Under the pieces are notes generated by a model. The model was not told the origin of the DNA and ran no database searches. It was given only the letters and a program-made list of their open reading frames with translations. DNA of 64,000 bases, taken from an uncultured Ruminococcus sp. Its GTDB lineage: Bacteria > Bacillota > Clostridia > Monoglobales > Monoglobaceae. Positions 2,268-57,962 of this stretch are shown here, piece after piece. The translations under genes and the position numbers were made by a program. Numbering within the stretch: position 1 is the stretch's first letter; each line of letters opens with the position of its first letter. The stretch is from NCBI GenBank assembly GCA_902797885.1, contig CADBUP010000171.1:17687-81686 (forward strand). The letters are read 5' to 3'.

Positions 2268-3175
2268 ATGATATACGTAACTGTAAAACAAAAAAGAAAT
2301 GACAAACAATTGAAATGGGAAGATTTTCTGTTTAACGAAGATCCTAAAATTCCAAAAATTCACTATGATGAAACCGGAACAATTACGCGAAAATTATTTG
2401 GCCCAAGCAAAGAGATGCTAAAGAGCGTAAATGTTCCGGGTATGATCGCTCTCTTGAAAGGATTTAACACGAAATATTCTTCTTTGTTTGAAAAGAACAA
2501 AGAAGAATTGTACGATCATTTCAAAATTCCAAAGAAAACAGGCGGGTTCAGGCCTATTGACGCGCCTAAGGACGAACTTCAAACAGCACTGAGAGAGCTT
2601 GTTTTTATTCTATCGGAAAAGTTTGGTCTTCTTTACCATACGGCCGCCTTTGCATATGTGAAGGGGCGCTGTATCACAGACGCGGTAAAGAAACACCAAA
2701 TCAATGAGAGCAATTGGATCCTGAAAACAGATTTCAGCGGCTTCTTTCCGTCCACTACATTGGATTTTGCCATGAGCATGATGTCTATGTTGTGGCCCGT
2801 AAGCGAGATATGCAAAACGAAGGCAGGCGAAGATGAATTAAGAAAAGCGCTAAGCCTTGGATTTCTTAACAATTCTTTGCCGCAAGGCACAGTTTTGTCT
2901 CCTATGCTTACAAATTTGATCATGATTCCCATAGATTACACATTATTCAACGAATTTGCTCATAGGAGATTCGTGTATACCAGATATGCGGATGACATTC
3001 ATATCAGCTGTGTTCAAAGCTTTGATATGGATGAAGTTGTTCAAATGATTAAAGAAGCGTTAGAAATCTTTCATGCGCCATACGAAATTAAGAAAGAAAA
3101 GACGCATTATGGATCCAGAAAAGGCAGAAATAAAATTCTTGGCCTGTCTTTGAATGCTGAAAATAACATAACGGT
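2268..3175 (+). CDS. reverse transcriptase, retron/Abi/DRT class, exon 1
   Basis: FRPIDAP; AAFAYVKGRCITDAVKKH...KTDFSGFFPS (retron-like NAxxH/FFxS region); LPQGTVLSPMLTNL; YTRYADDIHIS (YADD, nt 2984-2995); ILGLSLN (VTG-like region). The ORF runs into an intron. Confidence 0.8.
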
Positions 3176-4362
3176 TGGATAAAACGCTTGTCCCTTTAAA
3201 CTGAAAAGTTTATCGATAACATGGTGAACCTGTAAATGCAGGGTGTCTTAATTTATTAAGGCTAACGGGGAAATCTAAACAATATACATAACACTGAAAC
3301 TATGATATAATACCACCAAAGAAAGGTGGTGGCTTTATGCGCTATAAAGACTTGACTGGGCAAAGATTCTTTTGGTTAACAGTAATAAGAAAATTCGACG
3401 ATCCTAATAGTAAAGAAGTAAAGTGGTTGTGTAAATGTGATTGTGGAAACGAAGTCGTCGTAACTGCTGCAAATTTAAAATCTGGGAATACAAAATCATG
3501 TGGTTGTTATTACCGATCGGAAAGATTAAGAGCCAACATAATAGGCAAACAATTTGGTTTTTTGACAGCAATAAAAAGAATAAACTCCAAAGATGTTTTA
3601 TGCAAATGTTTGTGTGGAAATGAAATAGTTGTTTCATATTCAAATTTAACAAGCGGGAACACGAGATCGTGTGGATGTGCGCTTGTAAGATTTATATTGA
3701 ACGATAAATTAACAAACTTGACAGGAAGAATATTTGGAGAATTATTAGTAATTGCTAGATACGGTGATATGAAAGGTAATAGAAACCCAAAATGGCTTTG
3801 TCGTTGCTCTTGCGGAAGATATACTATAGTAGATGGAGAAAAACTAAAGAGTGGACACACGCAATCATGCGGTTGCATGAAAAACAGTTTGCCAGAATCT
3901 ATTATTGTTAATTATCTAAGATCGCACAACGTATCCTATGAAAAAGAATATAAATTCAAAGATTTAAGAAGTGAAAAAGGATATCCACTAAGATTTGATT
4001 TTAAAATTAATACAGAAAACAGTTTTTTCTTATTGGAGTATCAAGGACAACAACACTACTTAAATCACGACGACTTTGGAAAGCAGCAAAGAGAAGTTAC
4101 TGATAAGCAAAAGAAAGATTATTGTATGAAAAATAATATCGAATTAATTGAAATAAAATACGATGAAGAGATAGTTTCAGTTCTGGAAAAAATATTAATT
4201 GAACATTGTATATTGCATGACAATCCCGTGCCAAGCTCTGACCAAGAGAAGGTGTAACGACTATCCCGCGAGGGAGTAGCTTCTACGTGAAACTCGTAGT
4301 CGCGAAGCGCCATGCATCCTAATATGGATGATGATATAGTCTAGCTTTATGGAAACATAAAG
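3176..4362 (+). mobile_element. group I intron (family 1) interrupting the RT gene
   Basis: GGTGAACC (3223-3230), GCTAACGGGGAAATCTAAAC (3261-3280), CCCGTGCCAAG (4224-4234), GAAGGTGTAACGACTATCC (4248-4266) and GATATAGTC (4333-4341, P7 3' strand). The same blocks recur in five other loci. Boundaries are accurate to a few nt. Confidence 0.75.
3337..4257 (+). CDS. intron-encoded homing endonuclease: 3 tandem CxCxCG...SCGC zinc modules + Vsr/DUF559-like PD-(D/E)XK domain
   Basis: AAAGGTGGTG RBS. Three ~50-aa repeats (e.g. WLCKCDCGNEVVVTAANLKSGNTKSCGC). C-terminal LRFDF...LLEYQGQQHY...TDKQKKDYC...IELIEIKY. Confidence 0.75.
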   Translation: MRYKDLTGQRFFWLTVIRKFDDPNSKEVKWLCKCDCGNEVVVTAANLKSGNTKSCGCYYRSERLRANIIGKQFGFLTAIKRINSKDVLCKCLCGNEIVVSYSNLTSGNTRSCGCALVRFILNDKLTNLTGRIFGELLVIARYGDMKGNRNPKWLCRCSCGRYTIVDGEKLKSGHTQSCGCMKNSLPESIIVNYLRSHNVSYEKEYKFKDLRSEKGYPLRFDFKINTENSFFLLEYQGQQHYLNHDDFGKQQREVTDKQKKDYCMKNNIELIEIKYDEEIVSVLEKILIEHCILHDNPVPSSDQEKV

Positions 4363-4594
4363 ACCCACTGGGCGGGAAAAGAAGTACTGGAAAAGTGCCA
4401 CAAACAACCTGATCATGGACTATAAGAACGGCAAGATTTGGGATGTTGACGACATCCGACACTACGAAGGGTTGCTTTCGTATTACAAAATGGTTGAACC
4501 GGATTGTTTTGATCAGCTGGTGAAACACTATGAAGAGAAGTATCACGTTAGTTTAAAGAAGATCATCAAATATTCTTTGAATAACGGCTGGTAA
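4363..4594 (+). CDS. reverse transcriptase, exon 2 (inferred)
   Basis: Open frame from 4361 to TAA 4592-4594 (PTGREKKYW...LEGLLSYYKMVEPDCFDQLVKHY). Joining 3175|4363 keeps the frame (GT+A=Val), giving 379 aa in total. Confidence 0.55.
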
Positions 4595-4599
4595 AGAGC

Positions 4600-5130
4600 G
4601 ATGCCAACAGTTTAAGAAACTGGGATCTGGTGTAATCAAATCTATCTTTACATGAAGGTAAAAATTACTTCAGAGTCGTCATCATAAATGTTTTAAAGCT
4701 CCGTTTTAAAACATTTCTTCTGACGACTCTGAAGTAATTAATAGTAAAATAAATCCTTACCAAATAATTTAAGGATTTATTTAGATCGCTCCATGTGGAG
4801 TTTAGGGTCACTCCCTAAACTTCGCTACCTCTCCAGCTTTTAGCTGGTGTTATCTTCTCCTTTCGTCCGTCGGACTCGTCACCCGACGGACATTATCCTG
4901 AAATTTTAATCTGCGGTGGCGGAATAAACACAAGCGGAATTGAATAAATAAACTATGTTTATTTGATAATCCGCAGTGGACGCAATAACAACGCTCATGC
5001 GAAGCGAGTTGTGTCAGTAGACGCTTATCAGCCTAAGGCGAATAGTTTCAAACAGGTTTTGCGATAAAGGCATATAATTCCTGCTCACTATCAATGTCGC
5101 TATGTGTGGTGGAAATCCACACCCGCAGTA
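4600..5130 (+). ncRNA. candidate large structured RNA / multi-hairpin region (function unknown)
   Basis: About 530 nt with no credible ORF. Hairpin 4663-4739 has a 19-bp outer stem and a 12-bp inner stem. Further hairpins at 4747-4782, 4800-4820, 4834-4848 and 4865-4891, followed by the repeat module 4916-5123. Confidence 0.3.
5099..5123 (+). repeat. 25-nt exact repeat GCTATGTGTGGTGGAAATCCACACC, copy A (contains hairpin GTGTGG/CCACAC)
   Basis: Identical to 6256-6280. Lies about 20 nt upstream of the ATG at 5143. Confidence 0.9.
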
Positions 5131-5142
5131 AAGGAGAACTAT

Positions 5143-5535
5143 ATGCATACGATATTAGTGTCAGAAAAATATTACTTCAGTGATGAAGATATGGAAAACA
5201 TTGTTGTCACGGCGTTAGAAGACGGTATTGGCTATTGGGCTTGTTTGGATAATTCCGATGTGGAGCCACGGGATTGGGGTGACTGGACAAAGAAGCCAAA
5301 GGATATGCCTACATCAGTATATGCCTGGAAAATCATTCAATCTGGCGGCACTCTGCACTTCTTGGATGCAGAAGACGAGACAGCGGAATATTACTTTAGC
5401 CTGGTAAACCTATATACAGGCATCAGTATGGCGATAGGATCTGGTATGTGGGACGGAGACATTGATATATTGGATTCGAGTGTTGCCGATGCTATCTTTC
5501 AATATGGACTATTTGGAAAGTTGGTATATTCATGA
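5143..5535 (+). CDS. hypothetical protein
   Basis: AAGGAG RBS 8 nt upstream of ATG 5143. ATGA stop/start overlap with the next ORF. Confidence 0.7.
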   Translation: MHTILVSEKYYFSDEDMENIVVTALEDGIGYWACLDNSDVEPRDWGDWTKKPKDMPTSVYAWKIIQSGGTLHFLDAEDETAEYYFSLVNLYTGISMAIGSGMWDGDIDILDSSVADAIFQYGLFGKLVYS

Positions 5536-5936
5536 GCAATTGGACGCATGTAGCCGGAATAATCCGGCTGGACTCGTTTCGGATCGATATGTATCCAGAG
5601 CCAAACTTCGATAAACTTTTCGGAAAGAAACTAAATTATGGAAATTGGGAAGACGCACGGAAACATCCTGAAAAATATCTTCCGTTCGGCAGTGAAGGCT
5701 CACTTGATAAATCAGTGTGGGTAAATCCAGAAAAAAGCAGTATTCCTGCGTATACGGTTTCGATCTTTGGCGATCTGAGAGATCATGATTCAGTCAAAGA
5801 TATTATCGAATGGTTCAAAGAAAAGTGTAAATTCTGTAACTCTGACAATACACATGTTTGGGTGCGGCAGGCGACTATTACAGCATCTAACGAGCGATAC
5901 GGAACAGAGTCTTGGACATACGAAGAAGAAGCTTAA
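5532..5936 (+). CDS. hypothetical protein
   Basis: Translationally coupled ORF of 134 aa. No motif recognised. Confidence 0.65.
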   Translation: MSNWTHVAGIIRLDSFRIDMYPEPNFDKLFGKKLNYGNWEDARKHPEKYLPFGSEGSLDKSVWVNPEKSSIPAYTVSIFGDLRDHDSVKDIIEWFKEKCKFCNSDNTHVWVRQATITASNERYGTESWTYEEEA

Positions 5937-5954
5937 TCCCGCGAAAGCGGGTAC

Positions 5955-6025
5955 GCAGCCGTAATGTAATGGCAACATATTTGCCTTCCAAGCAAAATTT
6001 GCGGGTTCGAATCCCGTCGGCTGCT
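5955..6025 (+). tRNA. tRNA-Gly (anticodon UCC); CCA follows at 6026-6028
   Basis: Hand-folded cloverleaf: acceptor GCAGCCG/CGGCTGC, D stem ATGT/ACAT, anticodon stem TTTGC/GCAAA with loop CTTCCAA, T arm GCGGG-TTCGAAT-CCCGT. Confidence 0.85.
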
Positions 6026-6028
6026 CCA

Positions 6029-6667
6029 AGGGAAAACGTGCGCTAAAATCTTCAAAGTGACCCTGCAAACGGTAAAAGAAGATTGACTGATAGGAAAGAC
6101 TATCGTTTTGCTGTGGCGGAATAGACAACCATAATCAAACCAATGCGCTTGGATTGGGAAGTTGGCAAGCAAATTATACAAGTTGCTTGTAGTAGACGCT
6201 TAAAACGTAAGGCTTGTCGCCGGTAAGCCCTTTGTGGAGCCGTGGCCGCAGTACTGCTATGTGTGGTGGAAATCCACACCGGCAAAACAATAGACCTGCC
6301 AGCGCCTCTGCTTAGCACGCGTACCTTGGGGGCACCGCATAACCGAACGCGGTATATAAGATTATGTAACTACGGTTGTTAGTGTTACTGCGCAGAGATG
6401 AAAGCTAACGTAAAAATTCTCAGCGCGTTTAACTTTGGTAAGGGCCCCGCACGCTGAGACAAGTGACGCGAACCATGCTGGGACTTTTATATGGTCTTTT
6501 GATATCTTCGGATTGAGAAAGTATGAAAACGGACGTGTCCATAAAAAAAGAAAGCCCAAATTTAAAGCCTGTAATAATCCTAGGTATATTACCAGCTTCT
6601 CACAACAGTCCAGTTCATATCGGCTTTCGGATAACCAACCATTTCGGATTGCATTGTGAGAACTTAT
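6029..6667 (+). ncRNA. candidate large structured ncRNA between two tRNAs (ROOL/GOLLD-class is a hypothesis only)
   Basis: About 640 nt with only short mutually overlapping ORFs on both strands. Visibly more GC-rich than its surroundings. Hairpins at 6166-6189, 6209-6232, 6261-6279 and 6390-6427. Flanked directly by tRNA-Gly and tRNA-Pro. Confidence 0.3.
6256..6280 (+). repeat. 25-nt exact repeat GCTATGTGTGGTGGAAATCCACACC, copy B
   Basis: Identical to 5099-5123. Part of a larger shared module (6113-6280 versus 4916-5123). Confidence 0.9.
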
Positions 6668-6740
6668 CTGGGTGTAGCGCAGTTGGCAGCGTGCCTGATT
6701 TGGGATCAGGAGGCCGCCGGTTCAAATCCGGCCACTCAGA
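6668..6740 (+). tRNA. tRNA-Pro (anticodon UGG)
   Basis: Acceptor CTGGGTG/CACTCAG (one G-U), anticodon stem CCTGA/TCAGG with loop TTTGGGA, T arm GCCGG-TTCAAAT-CCGGC. Confidence 0.85.
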
Positions 6741-6766
6741 TTAACAAAAAAAGGAGACAGATATCT

Positions 6767-7255
6767 ATGCCGTTGGAAGATAAATATTATTACATTGTCA
6801 GAAAACTGATCGAAGAAAAGAAAACGATTTCCACTATGGAAAGCTGCACCGGCGGATTCATTGCCTCTATGATTACCGATATTCCAGCCGCTTCAGAAGT
6901 AATAAAAGGCGCATTTGTAACATACAGTAATGAAGCTAAAATCAAACAAGGTGTACCTGAATGGATAATTAAATCGCGTGGTGTGTACTCAAATGAAACA
7001 GCATATATGATGGCCTACGCTTGTGCAAGACAGTATAACTCAAACGTTGGAATTGGTATCACGGGATGCTTCGGTAGCATAGATCCGCAAAATAAAGACG
7101 GCGTTCCTGGCGTTGTGGATATCGCAATTGTAGACGGAATTTACTCTGATTCGTGGACAAAAACGTTCGGCCCGTTTGGTTCTCGGCATGATTATAAAAT
7201 TGCCGTAGCTGATTTCGTAGCAGATAAACTAATGGAAATCCTGGAGATCGCCTGA
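6767..7255 (+). CDS. pncC: CinA C-terminal-domain / nicotinamide-mononucleotide deamidase-like protein
   Basis: AAGGAG RBS. ISTMESCTGGFIASMITDIPAASEVIKGAFVTYSNEAK matches the ESCTGG...G.V.YSN signature of the CinA/PncC family. The upstream in-frame extension overlaps tRNA-Pro and is rejected. Confidence 0.7.
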   Translation: MPLEDKYYYIVRKLIEEKKTISTMESCTGGFIASMITDIPAASEVIKGAFVTYSNEAKIKQGVPEWIIKSRGVYSNETAYMMAYACARQYNSNVGIGITGCFGSIDPQNKDGVPGVVDIAIVDGIYSDSWTKTFGPFGSRHDYKIAVADFVADKLMEILEIA

Positions 7256-7270
7256 CGGTCTCCCCTATCT

Positions 7271-7343
7271 GCGCCTGTAGCCAAGAGGATAAGGCCGCGC
7301 TCTTCTAAAGCGCTATTCGCGGGTTCGATCCCTGCCAGGCGCG
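7271..7343 (+). tRNA. tRNA-Arg (anticodon UCU)
   Basis: Acceptor GCGCCTG/CAGGCGC, anticodon stem GCGCT/AGCGC with loop CTTCTAA, T arm GCGGG-TTCGATC-CCTGC. Confidence 0.85.
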
Positions 7344-7370
7344 TTTTATTTCGCTATAAGGAGAAGTATT

Positions 7371-7763
7371 ATGAAAGAGTTTCTCTTGTTAATTACAATT
7401 ATTTTCTTTCATATTCTGGACGATTTTCATCTGCAGGGAATCTTAGCCTCCATGAAGCAAAAGAATTGGTGGGCAGAGCATTATCCTGATAAACTGTACA
7501 AGCATGATTATATTATCGCGCTGATTACACACTCTTTTTCCTGGTCGTTCATGGTTCATTTGCCGGCGTTCGTCTATCTGTATATCACAGGTAAACAAAT
7601 GCCATTGTTTTTCTTAATCATTTCTTTCGTGGCGCATATATGTTGTCACGCCTGTGTTGATAACGATAAGGCGAACAGACATATTATTTCGTTAGTTGAA
7701 GATCAATGTATTCATCTTATTCAGCTAATAGGAATCTGGATGATGTTCGTGCTATATCGTTAA
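7371..7763 (+). CDS. integral membrane protein (DUF3307-like, HILDDFHLQG motif)
   Basis: AAGGAG RBS. Several hydrophobic segments. Confidence 0.6.
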   Translation: MKEFLLLITIIFFHILDDFHLQGILASMKQKNWWAEHYPDKLYKHDYIIALITHSFSWSFMVHLPAFVYLYITGKQMPLFFLIISFVAHICCHACVDNDKANRHIISLVEDQCIHLIQLIGIWMMFVLYR

Positions 7764-13882: not shown

Positions 13883-15338
13883 TAACGAATAGGGCCGCAT
13901 ATTGGTAACAGTATGTGATAACGTGGTGAACCTGCAAACGCAGGGTGTCGCAGAAATGCGGCTAACGGGGAAAACTAAACGCAATTATTTTACTTAACTT
14001 TATACAGAAAGGTGGTGATAATATGAGCCATGCAAAATATTATAACGGAAAAACCATTAAAGAATGGTCTGCTGTTTGTGGGATCGAAGCAAAAACAATC
14101 AAAAACCGACTTAAAGAAGGTTGGTCTATTGACCATGCGATTTCTGTTCCGCTCGGTGAAAAGCGCGTTGCGACAATATCTCTATCAAAAATAGCTGCAG
14201 AAAATAAAATGTCGTTTAGTACATTGAAAAACAGGATCAACAAAGGAATGACAATTGAAGAAGCGATTAAATACGATCCGCGAAAAGATATGATAGGATA
14301 TAGATCAGGACGGCTTGTCGTAGAAAAAGAAATTGAACCAAAACGTGATCCATCTGGGAGACCAAGAAGACAGTTTTTATGTTTGTGCGATTGCGGAAAT
14401 GAAACAACAGCTCTTGCCGAAGTACTTATTTCTGGGAACAAGCGATCTTGCGGTTGTCTCGGAAAAGAAATAACATCTAAAAGACAAGAGAAAAATCTAA
14501 TTGGACAAACATTTGGAAGATGGTATATAGAAAGCGAAGCTTTTCGCGACAATCAAGGTATTCATTGGAACGCAGTGTGTTCTTGCGGAAATAAAGGCAC
14601 TCCAACAACAAGCAACTTATTAAAGGGAGTGAGCACGTCTTGTGGGTGTTACAATAAAGAACAAACCTCATTGCGTGAAAGAAAAGATTTAACAAATCAA
14701 AAGTTCTTTATGCTGACAGCGATTGAATACATTGGAATCGATGAATACAATAATTGTCTTTGGCGATGCAAATGCGATTGCGGAAATGAAATTGTGACGA
14801 CAGCCGGAAGATTGCTTGGAGGACAAATCATTTCATGTGGATGCCTTAGATCAAAATATGAACGTATGATTGAAGATGTTCTTATCTCGAAAAATATTTT
14901 CTTTAAAAAAGAAAAATATTTCAAAGATTTAAAACATATCAATTATTTGTTTTTTGATTTTTGCATCATAGATCATGATAACAACATTCATTTGATAGAA
15001 TATCAGGGCAAGCAGCACTATGTTGACTGTGGGGAATTTGGTAGATTGCAACGAGAGATAACAGATCAAATGAAAAAAGATTATTGTTCGAAAAACAATA
15101 TTCCATTATATGAAATTCGCTACGATAGCAATGTCGAAGATGAATTAAATAAGATAATTGCGCATGTCAATCCCGTGCTAAACTCTGAATTATCAGAGGA
15201 AGTGTAACGACTATCCCGTAAGGGAGTAACTACTACGTGAAATTCGTAGTTGTGAAGTGCCACGCAGACAAAGGATAGCTTTGCCTGAAGATATAGTCTA
15301 TTCCCCTAATAAATATCGGGAAACCGAGGGTACTATAG
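13883..15338 (+). mobile_element. group I intron (family 1) with homing-endonuclease ORF
   Basis: GGTGAACCTGCAAACGCAGGGTGTC, GCTAACGGGGAAAACTAAAC, GTGTAACGACTATCCC, GATATAGTCTA and TCGGGAAACCGA hairpin. Joining 13882|15339 is in phase 0. Confidence 0.75.
14023..15207 (+). CDS. intron-encoded homing endonuclease: 2 HTH-like repeats + 3 CxCxCG...SCGC modules + PD-(D/E)XK domain
   Basis: AAAGGTGGTG RBS. Contains LCLCDCGNE...SCGC, VCSCGNK...SCGC, WRCKCDCGNE...SCGC and FFDF...LIEYQGKQHY...IPLYEIRY. Confidence 0.75.
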   Translation: MSHAKYYNGKTIKEWSAVCGIEAKTIKNRLKEGWSIDHAISVPLGEKRVATISLSKIAAENKMSFSTLKNRINKGMTIEEAIKYDPRKDMIGYRSGRLVVEKEIEPKRDPSGRPRRQFLCLCDCGNETTALAEVLISGNKRSCGCLGKEITSKRQEKNLIGQTFGRWYIESEAFRDNQGIHWNAVCSCGNKGTPTTSNLLKGVSTSCGCYNKEQTSLRERKDLTNQKFFMLTAIEYIGIDEYNNCLWRCKCDCGNEIVTTAGRLLGGQIISCGCLRSKYERMIEDVLISKNIFFKKEKYFKDLKHINYLFFDFCIIDHDNNIHLIEYQGKQHYVDCGEFGRLQREITDQMKKDYCSKNNIPLYEIRYDSNVEDELNKIIAHVNPVLNSELSEEV

Positions 15339-32143: not shown

Positions 32144-32596
32144 TTGGTATTTGTTGGAATTGATCCAGGTGCTAAGGGCGGATGGTCTATTATCCATGAA
32201 GCTGGATCTGTAGAGTCCCATATCTGGGATGATATAAAGTTTATTGAGTCTATGAGGGACTTATCATTAACGAATTATAAAAACTGCAGATGCGCATTGG
32301 AAAAGGTAGGCGCAATGCCAAAGCAGGGGTTATCTTCCACATTTAAATTTGGAGAGAGCTACGGCGAAATACAAGGAATCCTGAAAGCGCTTGGTATACC
32401 TTTCCAAACTGTTCCTCCACAAACATGGAAAAAATCTTTTAGCCTAATCAATCAAGATAAATCAAAAAGCATTGAAACAGCCCAAAAGCTTTTCCCTGGA
32501 GTTGACTTAATCCCAACAGAGCGCAGCCGTAAAGCCAGCGATGGCATGGCTGAAAGCTTATTATTGGCGGAATACGCAAGGAGACATTTTGGTTAA
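32144..32596 (+). CDS. RuvC-like Holliday junction resolvase (phage type)
   Basis: VGIDPGAKGGWSII N-terminal catalytic Asp motif. TTG start. C-terminal DGMAESLLLAEY. Confidence 0.6.
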   Translation: MVFVGIDPGAKGGWSIIHEAGSVESHIWDDIKFIESMRDLSLTNYKNCRCALEKVGAMPKQGLSSTFKFGESYGEIQGILKALGIPFQTVPPQTWKKSFSLINQDKSKSIETAQKLFPGVDLIPTERSRKASDGMAESLLLAEYARRHFG

Positions 32597-42134: not shown

Positions 42135-42422
42135 ATGATCGAAACTGTAAAAAGAGAACCTGTTTTTCATGTTGGCTGCAGTGAACTTACTGGAGCAATT
42201 TATGCCGGAATAATCAATAAAAAAGGAACTAAATGGCTAAAGCAAACTGACGTTACGCAAGAAGCGCTTGCTGCTGTCAGAGATCATTTTATGAATGCGT
42301 ACTCCAGTCAAAAAGAACCGGTAGGTACTGTCGGTTATCAATGGACAACAAAAGATGGCAAAACAATAACTTTGCAGTTAAATATAGCGGAAACTCATGA
42401 AAGAAGTGATTTAATTGCCTGA
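42135..42422 (+). CDS. hypothetical protein
   Basis: GGGAG RBS. 95 aa. Confidence 0.55.
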   Translation: MIETVKREPVFHVGCSELTGAIYAGIINKKGTKWLKQTDVTQEALAAVRDHFMNAYSSQKEPVGTVGYQWTTKDGKTITLQLNIAETHERSDLIA

Positions 42423-42714
42423 CTTAAATAATACAACAAGTTATCAATGGTCTACATATATAGTTCCAACGCAGACATATAACATTGTCGATGGAACCAT
42501 TGAATATAATCCTACTTTAACAAACATGACATCTGAATATATGGATACGAAAACATATATAAGAGACATAGTTGAAGAAGTTTTATCGAGTTCCCGCATT
42601 AAGGAATTAGACGATCTCAAAGGAAAAGTCAGATATTTAGAATGCTTAATAGTAGATCTTCAGCGAAAGATTGAAGCGCTAACTGAGACTGTATTATTCG
42701 ATAAACAATCTTAG
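42415..42714 (+). CDS. hypothetical coiled-coil protein (TTG start uncertain)
   Basis: ORF overlaps the previous gene by 8 nt. Confidence 0.4.
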   Translation: MPDLNNTTSYQWSTYIVPTQTYNIVDGTIEYNPTLTNMTSEYMDTKTYIRDIVEEVLSSSRIKELDDLKGKVRYLECLIVDLQRKIEALTETVLFDKQS

Positions 42715-57466: not shown

Positions 57467-57962
57467 CAATTGTGTTATCGTGAAGGCTCTTTATCCTTCA
57501 CTTCTTATAGTTTCCTATAAGTTCGGACTATATCTTCACCCATCGCATTATTGCGATTAGGGGTCGGGCACTTGTATTAGGATTATTGATTACCGTTCTC
57601 ACCTATTAGTCTCTGAACCTTCCGAGATACTATTATCGGTATTCTCTCGGCTTGGCTGCTGATTACCATATTCACATATATAATTTTGATCATATGGCTT
57701 ATCTCTTAAATATCAAGATTTTATCTGAATTAATGTCCAATTCTCTCGCTGCAAATTCTTTACTGAGATATAATTTTTATTAGTGTCTATTTTGTACCAT
57801 TCATATACGTAATACATTATTATCTCCTATTTGTTTCATGCGAACTTAGGCTTCCAGCAATTCACCCGATTGCCAGTGCGGATTACGCCGCACAAGTGCC
57901 ATTGGCGAAAATAGTTTTCGTATTGAAGAAACGCTTGGTTGAATTACGAATCTTCGTTAAGC
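57467..57962 (-). mobile_element. group I intron (family 2, Tetrahymena/IC-like P7 landmarks) with decayed GIY-YIG remnant
   Basis: The minus strand has GGTTCAGAGACTAATAGG (57602-57619) and GAAGATATAGTCCGAAC (57521-57537), which are P7 5'/3' landmarks. GAAA-tetraloop hairpin CTTATAGGAAACTATAAG (57503-57520). Joining 57963|57466 gives T+GT=Cys, in frame. Confidence 0.6.
57713..57817 (-). pseudogene. 34-aa remnant of a GIY-YIG homing endonuclease inside the intron
   Basis: AGGAG RBS. MYYVYEWYKIDTNKNYISVKNLQRENW... parallels I-TevI GIYQIKNTLNNKVYVGSAKDFEKRW (recalled from memory), then terminates. Confidence 0.4.

Follow-up and report, generated by a model that had tools for sequence, protein, structure and literature searches.

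A tRNA-Leu-shaped RNA without an anticodon arm as the probable core of a spacer between two phage tRNA genes

The tRNA-Gly to tRNA-Pro spacer and its tRNA-like core

The 64,000-nucleotide (nt) stretch of contig CADBUP010000171.1 analyzed here (the window) contains a phage tRNA cluster in which the genes for tRNA-Gly and tRNA-Pro are separated by a spacer of 638 nt (6029–6666, as delimited by ARAGORN and the Rfam tRNA model). The core of this spacer is, in identity as in anatomy, probably a 180-nt RNA that has the shape of tRNA-Leu without an anticodon arm, with a paralog at 4910–5129. The same phage is also present as a 147-kb contig (L037). The features of the spacer and its surroundings, with scores on the family model R1 where they apply, are as follows.

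4910–5129, + strand: probable tRNA-Leu-like RNA, copy 1; R1 46.6 bits, rough E-value 8e-11
5955–6028, + strand: tRNA-Gly(UCC), ARAGORN, Rfam tRNA 69.2 bits; 5′ boundary of the spacer
6029–6106, + strand: spacer block A, 78 nt, with hairpins AATCTTC/GAAGATT and GATAG/CTATC
6107–6286, + strand: probable tRNA-Leu-like RNA without an anticodon arm, copy 2, 180 nt; R1 52.2 bits, rough E-value 2e-12
6107–6113, + strand: copy 2, acceptor 5′ strand
6114–6115, + strand: copy 2, U8 and G9
6116–6123, + strand: copy 2, 5′ part of the D arm
6124–6191, + strand: copy 2, lineage-specific D-loop insertion, 68 nt
6192–6199, + strand: copy 2, GTAGACGC
6199–6211, + strand: copy 2, mini-hairpin CTTA-AAACG-TAAG
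6212–6258, + strand: copy 2, variable domain
6261–6279, + strand: copy 2, T stem-loop GTGTGG-TGGAAAT-CCACAC
6280–6286, + strand: copy 2, acceptor 3′ strand
6287–6666, + strand: spacer block D, 380 nt, lineage-specific, no conserved structure demonstrated
6667–6741, + strand: tRNA-Pro(UGG), ARAGORN, Rfam tRNA 67.3 bits; 3′ boundary of the spacer
7270–7344, + strand: tRNA-Arg(UCU), ARAGORN and Rfam

The initial annotation described the segment between tRNA-Gly and tRNA-Pro as free of genes, and this was borne out: the 638 nt hold no credible gene, and the short, overlapping open reading frames (ORFs) that had been noted are all of 82 amino acids (aa) or fewer. The sole ORF with an ATG start (6523–6744) extends through tRNA-Pro and is lost in the closest relative, which reads ATG ATG TAA and so retains two codons, while a 74-aa ORF beginning with TTG had no tblastn match among GenBank phages. 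The GC enrichment that had been reported is present and modest (0.448, versus 0.402 for the window and 0.415–0.427 for the flanking genes), lying approximately 1.4 standard deviations above equal-sized windows, 9.4% of which are as GC-rich or more so. Stable hairpins can be drawn, as had been claimed, but the folding energy is no better than that of dinucleotide shuffles (minimum free energy, MFE, z = -0.09 on the + strand and -0.66 on the - strand). A larger ORF-free gap exists elsewhere in the window. As arguments for a spacer RNA, GC content and hairpins carry little weight. BLAST of 5900–6800 against GenBank phages gave matches confined to the tRNA parts, and a search of 4500–7500 for promoter and terminator signals found none beyond the level of chance.

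In copy 2, residues 6107–6113 pair with 6280–6286 (UUUGCUG/CGGCAAA, one G·U) to form an acceptor stem of 7 bp that is followed by U8, as in a tRNA. The D arm of the element is that of tRNA-Leu, reading GGCGGAAUA..GUAGACGC, and its 3′ end (6257–6286, ..CTAT GTGTGG TGGAAAT CCACAC CGGCAAA) contains the T hairpin characteristic of the family, with a UGNAAAU loop and A-U before the stem. Three properties of a standard tRNA (RF00005) are absent. The 5-bp stem and 7-nt loop of the anticodon arm are replaced by a mini-hairpin of 4 bp with a 5-nt loop and by the variable domain; the T arm has 6 bp and UGGAAAU in place of 5 bp and U-U-C-R-A-N-N; and of the aminoacylation signals, A73 for leucine is not conserved in the family and a 3′ CCA is rarely encoded, with addition of CCA by an enzyme being conceivable.

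Copy 1 is situated 315 nt past a reverse transcriptase (RT) gene and 13 nt ahead of the start codon at 5143 of a 130-aa gene (5143–5535). It possesses a 95-nt structured D-loop insertion and folds better than its shuffles (MFE z = -3.04). The window has exactly two occurrences, at 5104 and 6261, of the 19-mer GTGTGGTGGAAATCCACAC (hairpin GTGTGG-TGGAAAT-CCACAC), where chance would give none. Alignment of 4912–5141 with 6109–6298 scored 58, versus a mean of 28 and a maximum of 39 for shuffled sequences. With filters off, R1 found just two matches in the 64 kb, the two copies, the next best scoring 11.5 bits; both cover model positions 1–119. Membership was assigned to full-length matches scoring well over the 28–36 bits that true tRNA-Leu genes reach on R1.

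Relatives of this phage were found by way of the 134-aa protein encoded upstream (L031–L035, 77% aa identity; L036, 68%). Both copies hold their positions in all of these relatives. The orthologs of copy 2 in L031–L036 show compensatory changes, and the scaffold and D-loop insertion of copy 1 are kept even in L036, where neighboring genes are only approximately 70% identical, again with compensatory changes (GCGG/CCGC to GCAG/CTGC and GTGTGG/CCACAC to GCGCGG/CCGCGC). The copy 2 insertion (6124–6191) is missing from the orthologous copy in L031–L034, and no second copy of it was found in the window or in any of the fetched loci. The possibility that the D-loop insertions are copies of a mobile mini-element was rejected, as no further copies exist.

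Covariation, origin and distribution of the family

A scan of IMG/VR with the 19-mer hairpin recovered four unrelated phages in which the closing strands differ yet are complementary. The pairs of closing strands are CTGCGG/CCGCAG, TTTTGCTG/CGGCAAAA, TATTTTG/CAAAATA, AATATTTAG/CTAAATATT, AAAAATGCGG/CCGCATTTTT and ATGCCGG/CCGGCAT. A conserved 18-mer, GGCGGAATANGTAGACGC, is found at 120 or more IMG/VR loci, some of which are true tRNA-Leu genes and most of which are longer elements with the same 5′ part. In a structural search, these fell into two clean classes. True tRNA-Leu genes are 81–85 nt long, with a 5-bp T stem, a UUCRANU T loop and mostly A73-CCA at the 3′ end, whereas the elements are 60–251 nt long, with a 6-bp T stem, a T loop of UGCAAAU, UGAAAAU or UGGAAAU (UGNAAAU) and no CCA. 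At the second T-loop position, 59 of 62 family members have G and 20 of 20 true tRNA-Leu genes have U. With bacterial genomes added, the family comprised 169 distinct elements of 60–344 nt (median 119) with 111 different acceptor 5′ strands. Their discriminator base varies (A 78, U 59, G 17, C 15), CCA comes next in 2 of the 169, and position 74 is U in 50% versus a background of 27%. Members of 60–91 nt have no space for an anticodon arm, and the insert can be wholly different between near-identical phages, e.g. L055 and L070. The elements are missed by ARAGORN and by the Rfam tRNA model.

Pairing in the family was examined in two alignments. A MAFFT alignment of 48 elements, whose members had been chosen by a pairing filter, showed double changes in 12 of 16 pairs. 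Because this set had been filtered for pairing, R1 was then used to align 98 hits retrieved without such a filter, representing 96 distinct sequences. In that alignment, 97.9% of cells were paired, double changes occurred in 14 of 16 pairs and there were 428 compensatory cells; the covariation score was 0.73, versus 0.17 for shuffled alignments and 0.06–0.12 when pairing partners were slid. Covariation extends to the tertiary fold. In a 62-member set retrieved with this base left free, the D-loop base that precedes GUAGA paired with the third base of the T loop as G:C 48 times, U:A 10 times and C:G, A:U and U:G once each, with a single mismatch, and the pair is U:A and C:G in the orthologous copies of L031 and L036, respectively. 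This covarying pair is the counterpart of the elbow pair of tRNA. Further conserved positions are U8, A14, A15, the A-U that precedes the T stem and the U...A within the T loop. The acceptor stem contains 45 G·U as opposed to 8 A·C combinations, an excess that indicates an RNA of the + strand. Covariation thus supports the helices of the tRNA-like family, and at the level of comparative sequence analysis the predicted fold, the transcribed strand, membership, distribution and genomic context are all shown.

Sequence comparison also identifies tRNA-Leu as the source of the element. Like bacterial class II tRNA-Leu, it has a 7-bp acceptor stem, U8, G9 and an identical D arm (GGCGGAAUAGGUAGACGC); A-U ahead of the T stem, where an A15-U48 pair would form; a T hairpin that stacks directly on the acceptor stem; and a Watson-Crick pair between the D and T loops. 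Unlike tRNA-Leu, it has a variable insert where the anticodon and variable arms would be, its variable region extends from 8 to more than 200 nt, its T stem is of 6 rather than 5 bp with a UGNAAAU rather than UUCRANU loop, and it has neither a conserved discriminator nor an encoded CCA.

Several inserts carry canonical T-arm-like hairpins of the GGUUCGAUUCC type, at L055 1509–1650, L071 3486–3641 and L078 1775–1931, and further at L085 3063–3210, L091 5282–5408 and L068 3698–3840. We read these hairpins as nested tRNA pieces within the tRNA-like scaffold.

A search with a strict two-block pattern placed the element in 104 species-representative genomes. Almost all of these belong to Bacillota, with carriers among Bacillus, Paenibacillus, Listeria, many Lactobacillaceae, Clostridia and Erysipelotrichaceae. 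It is also present, unannotated, in cultured Lactobacillus plantarum phages in GenBank, lying between two tRNA-Arg genes in ATCC 8014-B2 (at approximately 42397–42507 of the record) and between a DUF1492 gene and the terminase genes in H1-Guo; phage Sha1 is another cultivable carrier. Among 72 IMG/VR elements, 29 had a tRNA within the fetched locus; the nearest was on the same strand in all 29 and within 500 nt in 27, and some elements are just 7–11 nt from a tRNA. Co-oriented downstream neighbors include TerS (27 loci), HNH (15) and TerL (15+9), and YopX recurs upstream in the same orientation, along with two unannotated families of approximately 140–150 aa that are possibly late regulators. 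Tad2-like proteins occur in six loci, mostly downstream of the element. A role as cis-regulator of one gene family was rejected, as the downstream genes are diverse (by eye, DNA polymerase, HNH, lysin and small unknown proteins).

Other large phage RNAs are found nearby. A ROOL RNA lies 711 nt downstream of the element in L041 (2288–3722) and 52 nt downstream in L097 (396–1144), a drum RNA lies approximately 115 nt downstream in L069 (3220–3554) and L137 (2–335), and a skipping-rope RNA approximately 200 nt upstream in L161 (2085–2491). The element recurs where the packaging operon starts and next to ROOL, drum and skipping-rope, which suggests that these RNAs come from shared tRNA-type precursor transcripts.

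RNAs that mimic tRNA are a known kind. In transfer-messenger RNA (tmRNA), the acceptor stem and T arm are assembled from the two ends of a longer RNA, the interior of which replaces the anticodon region. The element follows the same plan, its ends forming the acceptor stem and T arm and its interior standing in place of the anticodon region, and lacks the alanine identity (G3·U70), encoded or added CCA, reduced D arm, pseudoknots and tag ORF of tmRNA. The bacterial Y-RNA-like YrlA and the Bacillus cereus pseudo-tRNA known as tRNA-Other do not decode; they mimic the elbow and acceptor of tRNA and engage tRNA-handling proteins. The ends of YrlA form a Ro-binding stem, and tRNA-Other retains the cloverleaf. 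YrlA and the other mimics differ from the element in topology, hosts and contexts, and have no sequence relation to it. The tRNA-like structures at the 3′ ends of plant viruses, likewise tRNA mimics (PMC8127992, PMC7749636), are aminoacylated ends of RNA genomes, unlike the element. A closer analog is man-made: in the engineered tRNA scaffold for recombinant RNA, an approach used in PMC3753655, the insert replaces the anticodon arm. As in that scaffold, the tRNA body of the element would provide processing by host enzymes and stability. The element differs in being natural and in having an insert that is sometimes nearly absent, and for this reason the tRNA body itself is argued to be the functional part.

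The architecture of the element is absent from Rfam 15, which had no family for it in any locus tested, and it is unannotated in the GenBank phages examined. Full-text literature searches, which included sequence motifs and covered the literature incompletely, found no prior description of the family. If it is truly uncatalogued, a common and easily recognized RNA gene would be added to the genomes of Bacillota phages, sitting in seemingly empty intergenic DNA of cultured Lactobacillus phages and of prophages of Listeria, Bacillus, Paenibacillus and gut Clostridia. As a natural tRNA scaffold, it would also offer a clean test of how small a part of a tRNA suffices for recognition by RNase P, RNase Z, the CCA-adding enzyme and leucyl-tRNA synthetase.

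Possible roles and alternative explanations

RNase P, RNase Z and the CCA-adding enzyme recognize the acceptor-T helix and the elbow of their substrates. Because the element retains both, host RNase P and RNase Z may excise it like a tRNA from a transcript that it would share with the flanking tRNAs, a proposal that we consider about as probable as its opposite. The cuts would split the polycistronic transcript and leave a stable, tRNA-shaped, non-decoding RNA. Since some members of 60–90 nt are almost without insert, the working part would be the tRNA-shaped core and not the insert. As to what such an RNA does, punctuation and stability of transcripts is one possible role; sequestration of a factor with affinity for the tRNA elbow or acceptor stem is slightly less favored, and the carrying of a payload seems doubtful. 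The variable discriminator argues against leucylation. The enrichment of U at position 74 is compatible with RNase Z and proves nothing.

We propose, tentatively, that the elements are undescribed and widespread phage mimics of the tRNA body (at least 170 variants in Bacillota phages and prophages), with the acceptor-T helix and elbow as the parts at work. They might serve as RNase P- and RNase Z-driven punctuation of tRNA-array and late or packaging transcripts, or act as decoys that engage host factors, immune toxins among them, by mimicking the acceptor end or elbow of tRNA that those factors attack or bind; the lineage studied here would have added a conserved D-loop domain. Several points weigh against the main reading of the spacer core as an excised, tRNA-shaped RNA. 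Family members were drawn by exact D-arm or T-loop patterns, which inflates apparent conservation there, and the R1 E-values are rough ones from a shortened calibration. It is shape alone that suggests cutting by RNase P and RNase Z, and the 13-bp (7+6) acceptor-T helix and the G at T-loop position 2 deviate from canonical substrates. The D loop of the window copies is split by 68–95 nt, and GUAGA is preceded by an A that faces G56; the elbow may therefore be built differently in these copies. A terminator-like hairpin follows within 160 nt downstream in approximately 17% of elements, and over half of these hairpins start 22 nt or less from the element; the elements followed by a hairpin within approximately 20 nt (roughly 10%) behave like stand-alone small RNA genes or 3′ ends and not like punctuation. 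Finally, small hairpins of block D have undergone two compensatory changes between L032 and the window, in keeping with a lineage-specific RNA there, an improbable though not negligible alternative.

The spacer is modular. Relative to L032, the window has 68 nt extra (6124–6191) and lacks approximately 350 nt of L032 between the counterparts of 6287 and 6292, and L036 has just short islands in common with the window. Based on these gains and losses of blocks, the spacer is mosaic non-coding DNA within a phage tRNA cluster and not one large RNA. Among 30 IMG/VR loci with homologs of the upstream 134-aa protein, none has the spacer, and only L021 has an element. Identity to L031 is 86–93% in neighboring genes, 97% in tRNA-Gly, 98.7% in block A (6029–6106), 94.7% in the 3′ part of the element and 91.7% in block D (6292–6646). 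Block A, with 77 of 78 nt the same in L031, is the most conserved stretch of the region and occurs in close relatives only, being absent from the more distant L036.

If block D held a separate structured RNA, its release would be passive, with cleavage behind the tRNA-like element generating the 5′ end and RNase P, acting at tRNA-Pro, generating the 3′ end. Block D lies exactly between these two tRNA-type processing sites, has no conserved ORF and keeps helices from window to L032 (TTAG/CTAA to TTGG/CCAA, and CTTTT../..GAGAAAG to CTTCTTC/GAAGAAG). However, it is found in near relatives only, at 88–92% identity, as for coding DNA; it gives no thermodynamic signal (MFE z = +0.69); it contains a 15-nt indel and a probable gene fragment; and IMG/VR pattern scans for homologs returned only one match, inside a RuvC-like gene. 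There, 6383–6445 translates to CYCAEMKANVKILSAFNFGKG versus CYIEEVHSMPSQGISSAFNFGKG in the RuvC-like resolvase gene of an unrelated IMG/VR phage (L269 5035–5499), with 25 nt identical and 52% of residues in agreement, which is a weak hint that this part is gene debris; tblastn of the peptide against GenBank phages found no match. The window's own RuvC-like gene is at 32144–32596. Most likely, block D is lineage-specific filler, partly gene debris.

In the same Gly to Pro/Trp spacer, L032 (2178–2400) and L036 (6098–6312) share a block of approximately 215 nt that has no counterpart in the window and no Rfam match. It is more than 90% identical in phages that are otherwise approximately 70% identical, and may be a mobile or strongly selected non-coding RNA.

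The remaining explanations concern the tRNA-like elements or the spacer as a whole. A role of the elements as template or primer for the retron-type RT next to them is very unlikely. Copy 1 is close downstream of the RT gene, and an RT of 46% identity lies approximately 1.3 kb upstream of the element in L069 and its relatives. Yet homologs of the window's RT were not found in the other fetched element loci, copy 2 is separated from the RT gene by 1.5 kb and two other genes, and retron RNAs are normally upstream of the RT gene.

The initial annotation had proposed that the entire spacer is one large ornate RNA of approximately 640 nt of the ROOL or GOLLD kind, which did not hold up; with divergent relatives of these classes included, we regard it as highly improbable. 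ROOL (RF03087) and GOLLD (RF01998) are borne by Bacillota phages and prophages near tRNA genes (PMC5737381, PMC12286853). The spacer shares this context, as do the tRNA-like elements, two of which are directly upstream of a ROOL, so that the slot of block D is occupied by a genuine ROOL in L041 and L097. A tRNA-cluster context by itself, however, does not define membership in either class, which for ROOL was taken as 99.1 bits or more on the RF03087 covariance model. At gathering thresholds, Rfam 15 left the spacer empty. At E<=10, the 1-kb slice 5850–6850 returned the two flanking tRNAs and two chance plastid untranslated-region matches overlying them, and the ROOL, GOLLD, HEARO (RF02033), raiA (RF03072) and tmRNA models, the scan that had been suggested, gave zero matches; ARAGORN also found no tmRNA in the spacer. 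A scan of 4200–5200 with Rfam gave a partial group I intron and chance matches only. The same ROOL model gave scores of 323 bits for L041 and 341 for L097, and others worked in related phage loci (drum in L069 and L137, skipping-rope in L161, HEARO in L150 at 135 bits). Nor does the spacer resemble a single ROOL-type RNA of approximately 580 nt with multistem junctions and pseudoknots, being a mosaic in which whole blocks differ between close relatives and in which MFE z is near zero overall and positive in block D. Motif resemblances of block D to ROOL (ACAAUAGA, and a hairpin plus AUAUAAGA) were pursued and the idea of a diverged ROOL rejected, as alignment scores of 23–30 fell inside the shuffle range (mean 25, maximum 36–43) and nhmmer found no match. 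The tRNA-like element itself has no sequence or covariance-model similarity to ROOL or GOLLD, and at 60–350 nt with a tRNA fold it differs from these RNAs of 580–800 nt with many junctions and pseudoknots. The claim of a structured non-coding RNA beside tRNAs in a Bacillota-type phage therefore stands for 180 of the 638 nt and fails for the whole spacer. For genome scans, this means that a ROOL-like context is insufficient; the real signal here was the 180-nt element and a paralog outside the flagged interval.

An intron-split tRNA-Leu gene, from which splicing would restore a decoding tRNA, is comparably improbable. Group I introns do occur in this phage, and bacterial tRNA-Leu genes with such introns are known. 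Against this, the 60–91-nt members cannot fit an anticodon arm, the inserts match no group I or other intron model, the T-loop and T-stem traits are consistently unlike those of true tRNA-Leu genes in the same phages, and neither CCA nor a conserved A73 is present. Equally slight is the probability that the conserved sequence works as DNA, as attP, cos, pac or an origin near the terminase genes. The elements are often just upstream of HNH, TerS and TerL, and tRNA genes are common integration targets. The excess of G·U over A·C (45 to 8), a D-loop:T-loop covariation that makes sense only in a folded tRNA-like RNA, a strand that is always that of the adjacent tRNAs and genes, and acceptor strands that vary freely among phages, unlike an att core, all argue for an RNA.

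Least probable of all is that both elements are functionless, decaying tRNA-Leu pseudogenes, the outcome that the initial annotation had named as refuting a large RNA: a D arm the same as that of real tRNA-Leu, the missing anticodon arm and the silence of ARAGORN and the Rfam tRNA model would fit, and a tRNA-Leu origin was indeed found, but approximately 169 variants with 111 acceptor strands hold all helices by compensatory changes, derived traits foreign to tRNA-Leu are shared (a T stem of 6 bp and, in 59 of 62, a G as the second T-loop base), and position and scaffold of both copies are kept where relatives' genes are only approximately 70% identical, which is the mark of a conserved, covarying family and not of decay.

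Neighboring features of the window

The retron-type RT gene upstream of copy 1 consists of two exons (2268–3180 and 4371–4594; 378 aa when joined; PADLOC RT_II-A, E 1e-51; Pfam RVT_1) split by a 1190-nt group I intron (3181–4370), within which an ORF (3337–4257) encodes a Cys-rich protein of 306 aa with no Pfam match. In L031 and L036 the gene is intron-less. No template and variable repeats of the diversity-generating retroelement type were found around it. Directly upstream is a 311-nt non-coding gap (1957–2267), the place that a retron msr/msd RNA would normally occupy, preceded by genes for a ThiF-family protein (1288–1956) and an unknown protein of 354 aa. Just past the RT stop codon, an inverted repeat (4663–4739) with 35-nt arms, 91% complementary, and a 7-nt loop is kept in the relatives, whichever orientation the BLAST match takes.

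A complete group I intron is present on the - strand in the late-gene region (57504–57923; Rfam 71 bits, E 5e-16). Elsewhere, a 48-nt island (15285–15332) is 94–98% identical to sequences of many Herelleviridae phages of Staphylococcus, Listeria, Enterococcus, Bacillus and Lactobacillus, in some of which it falls under a DNA polymerase or endonuclease annotation; it is probably a conserved target site of an intron or homing endonuclease.

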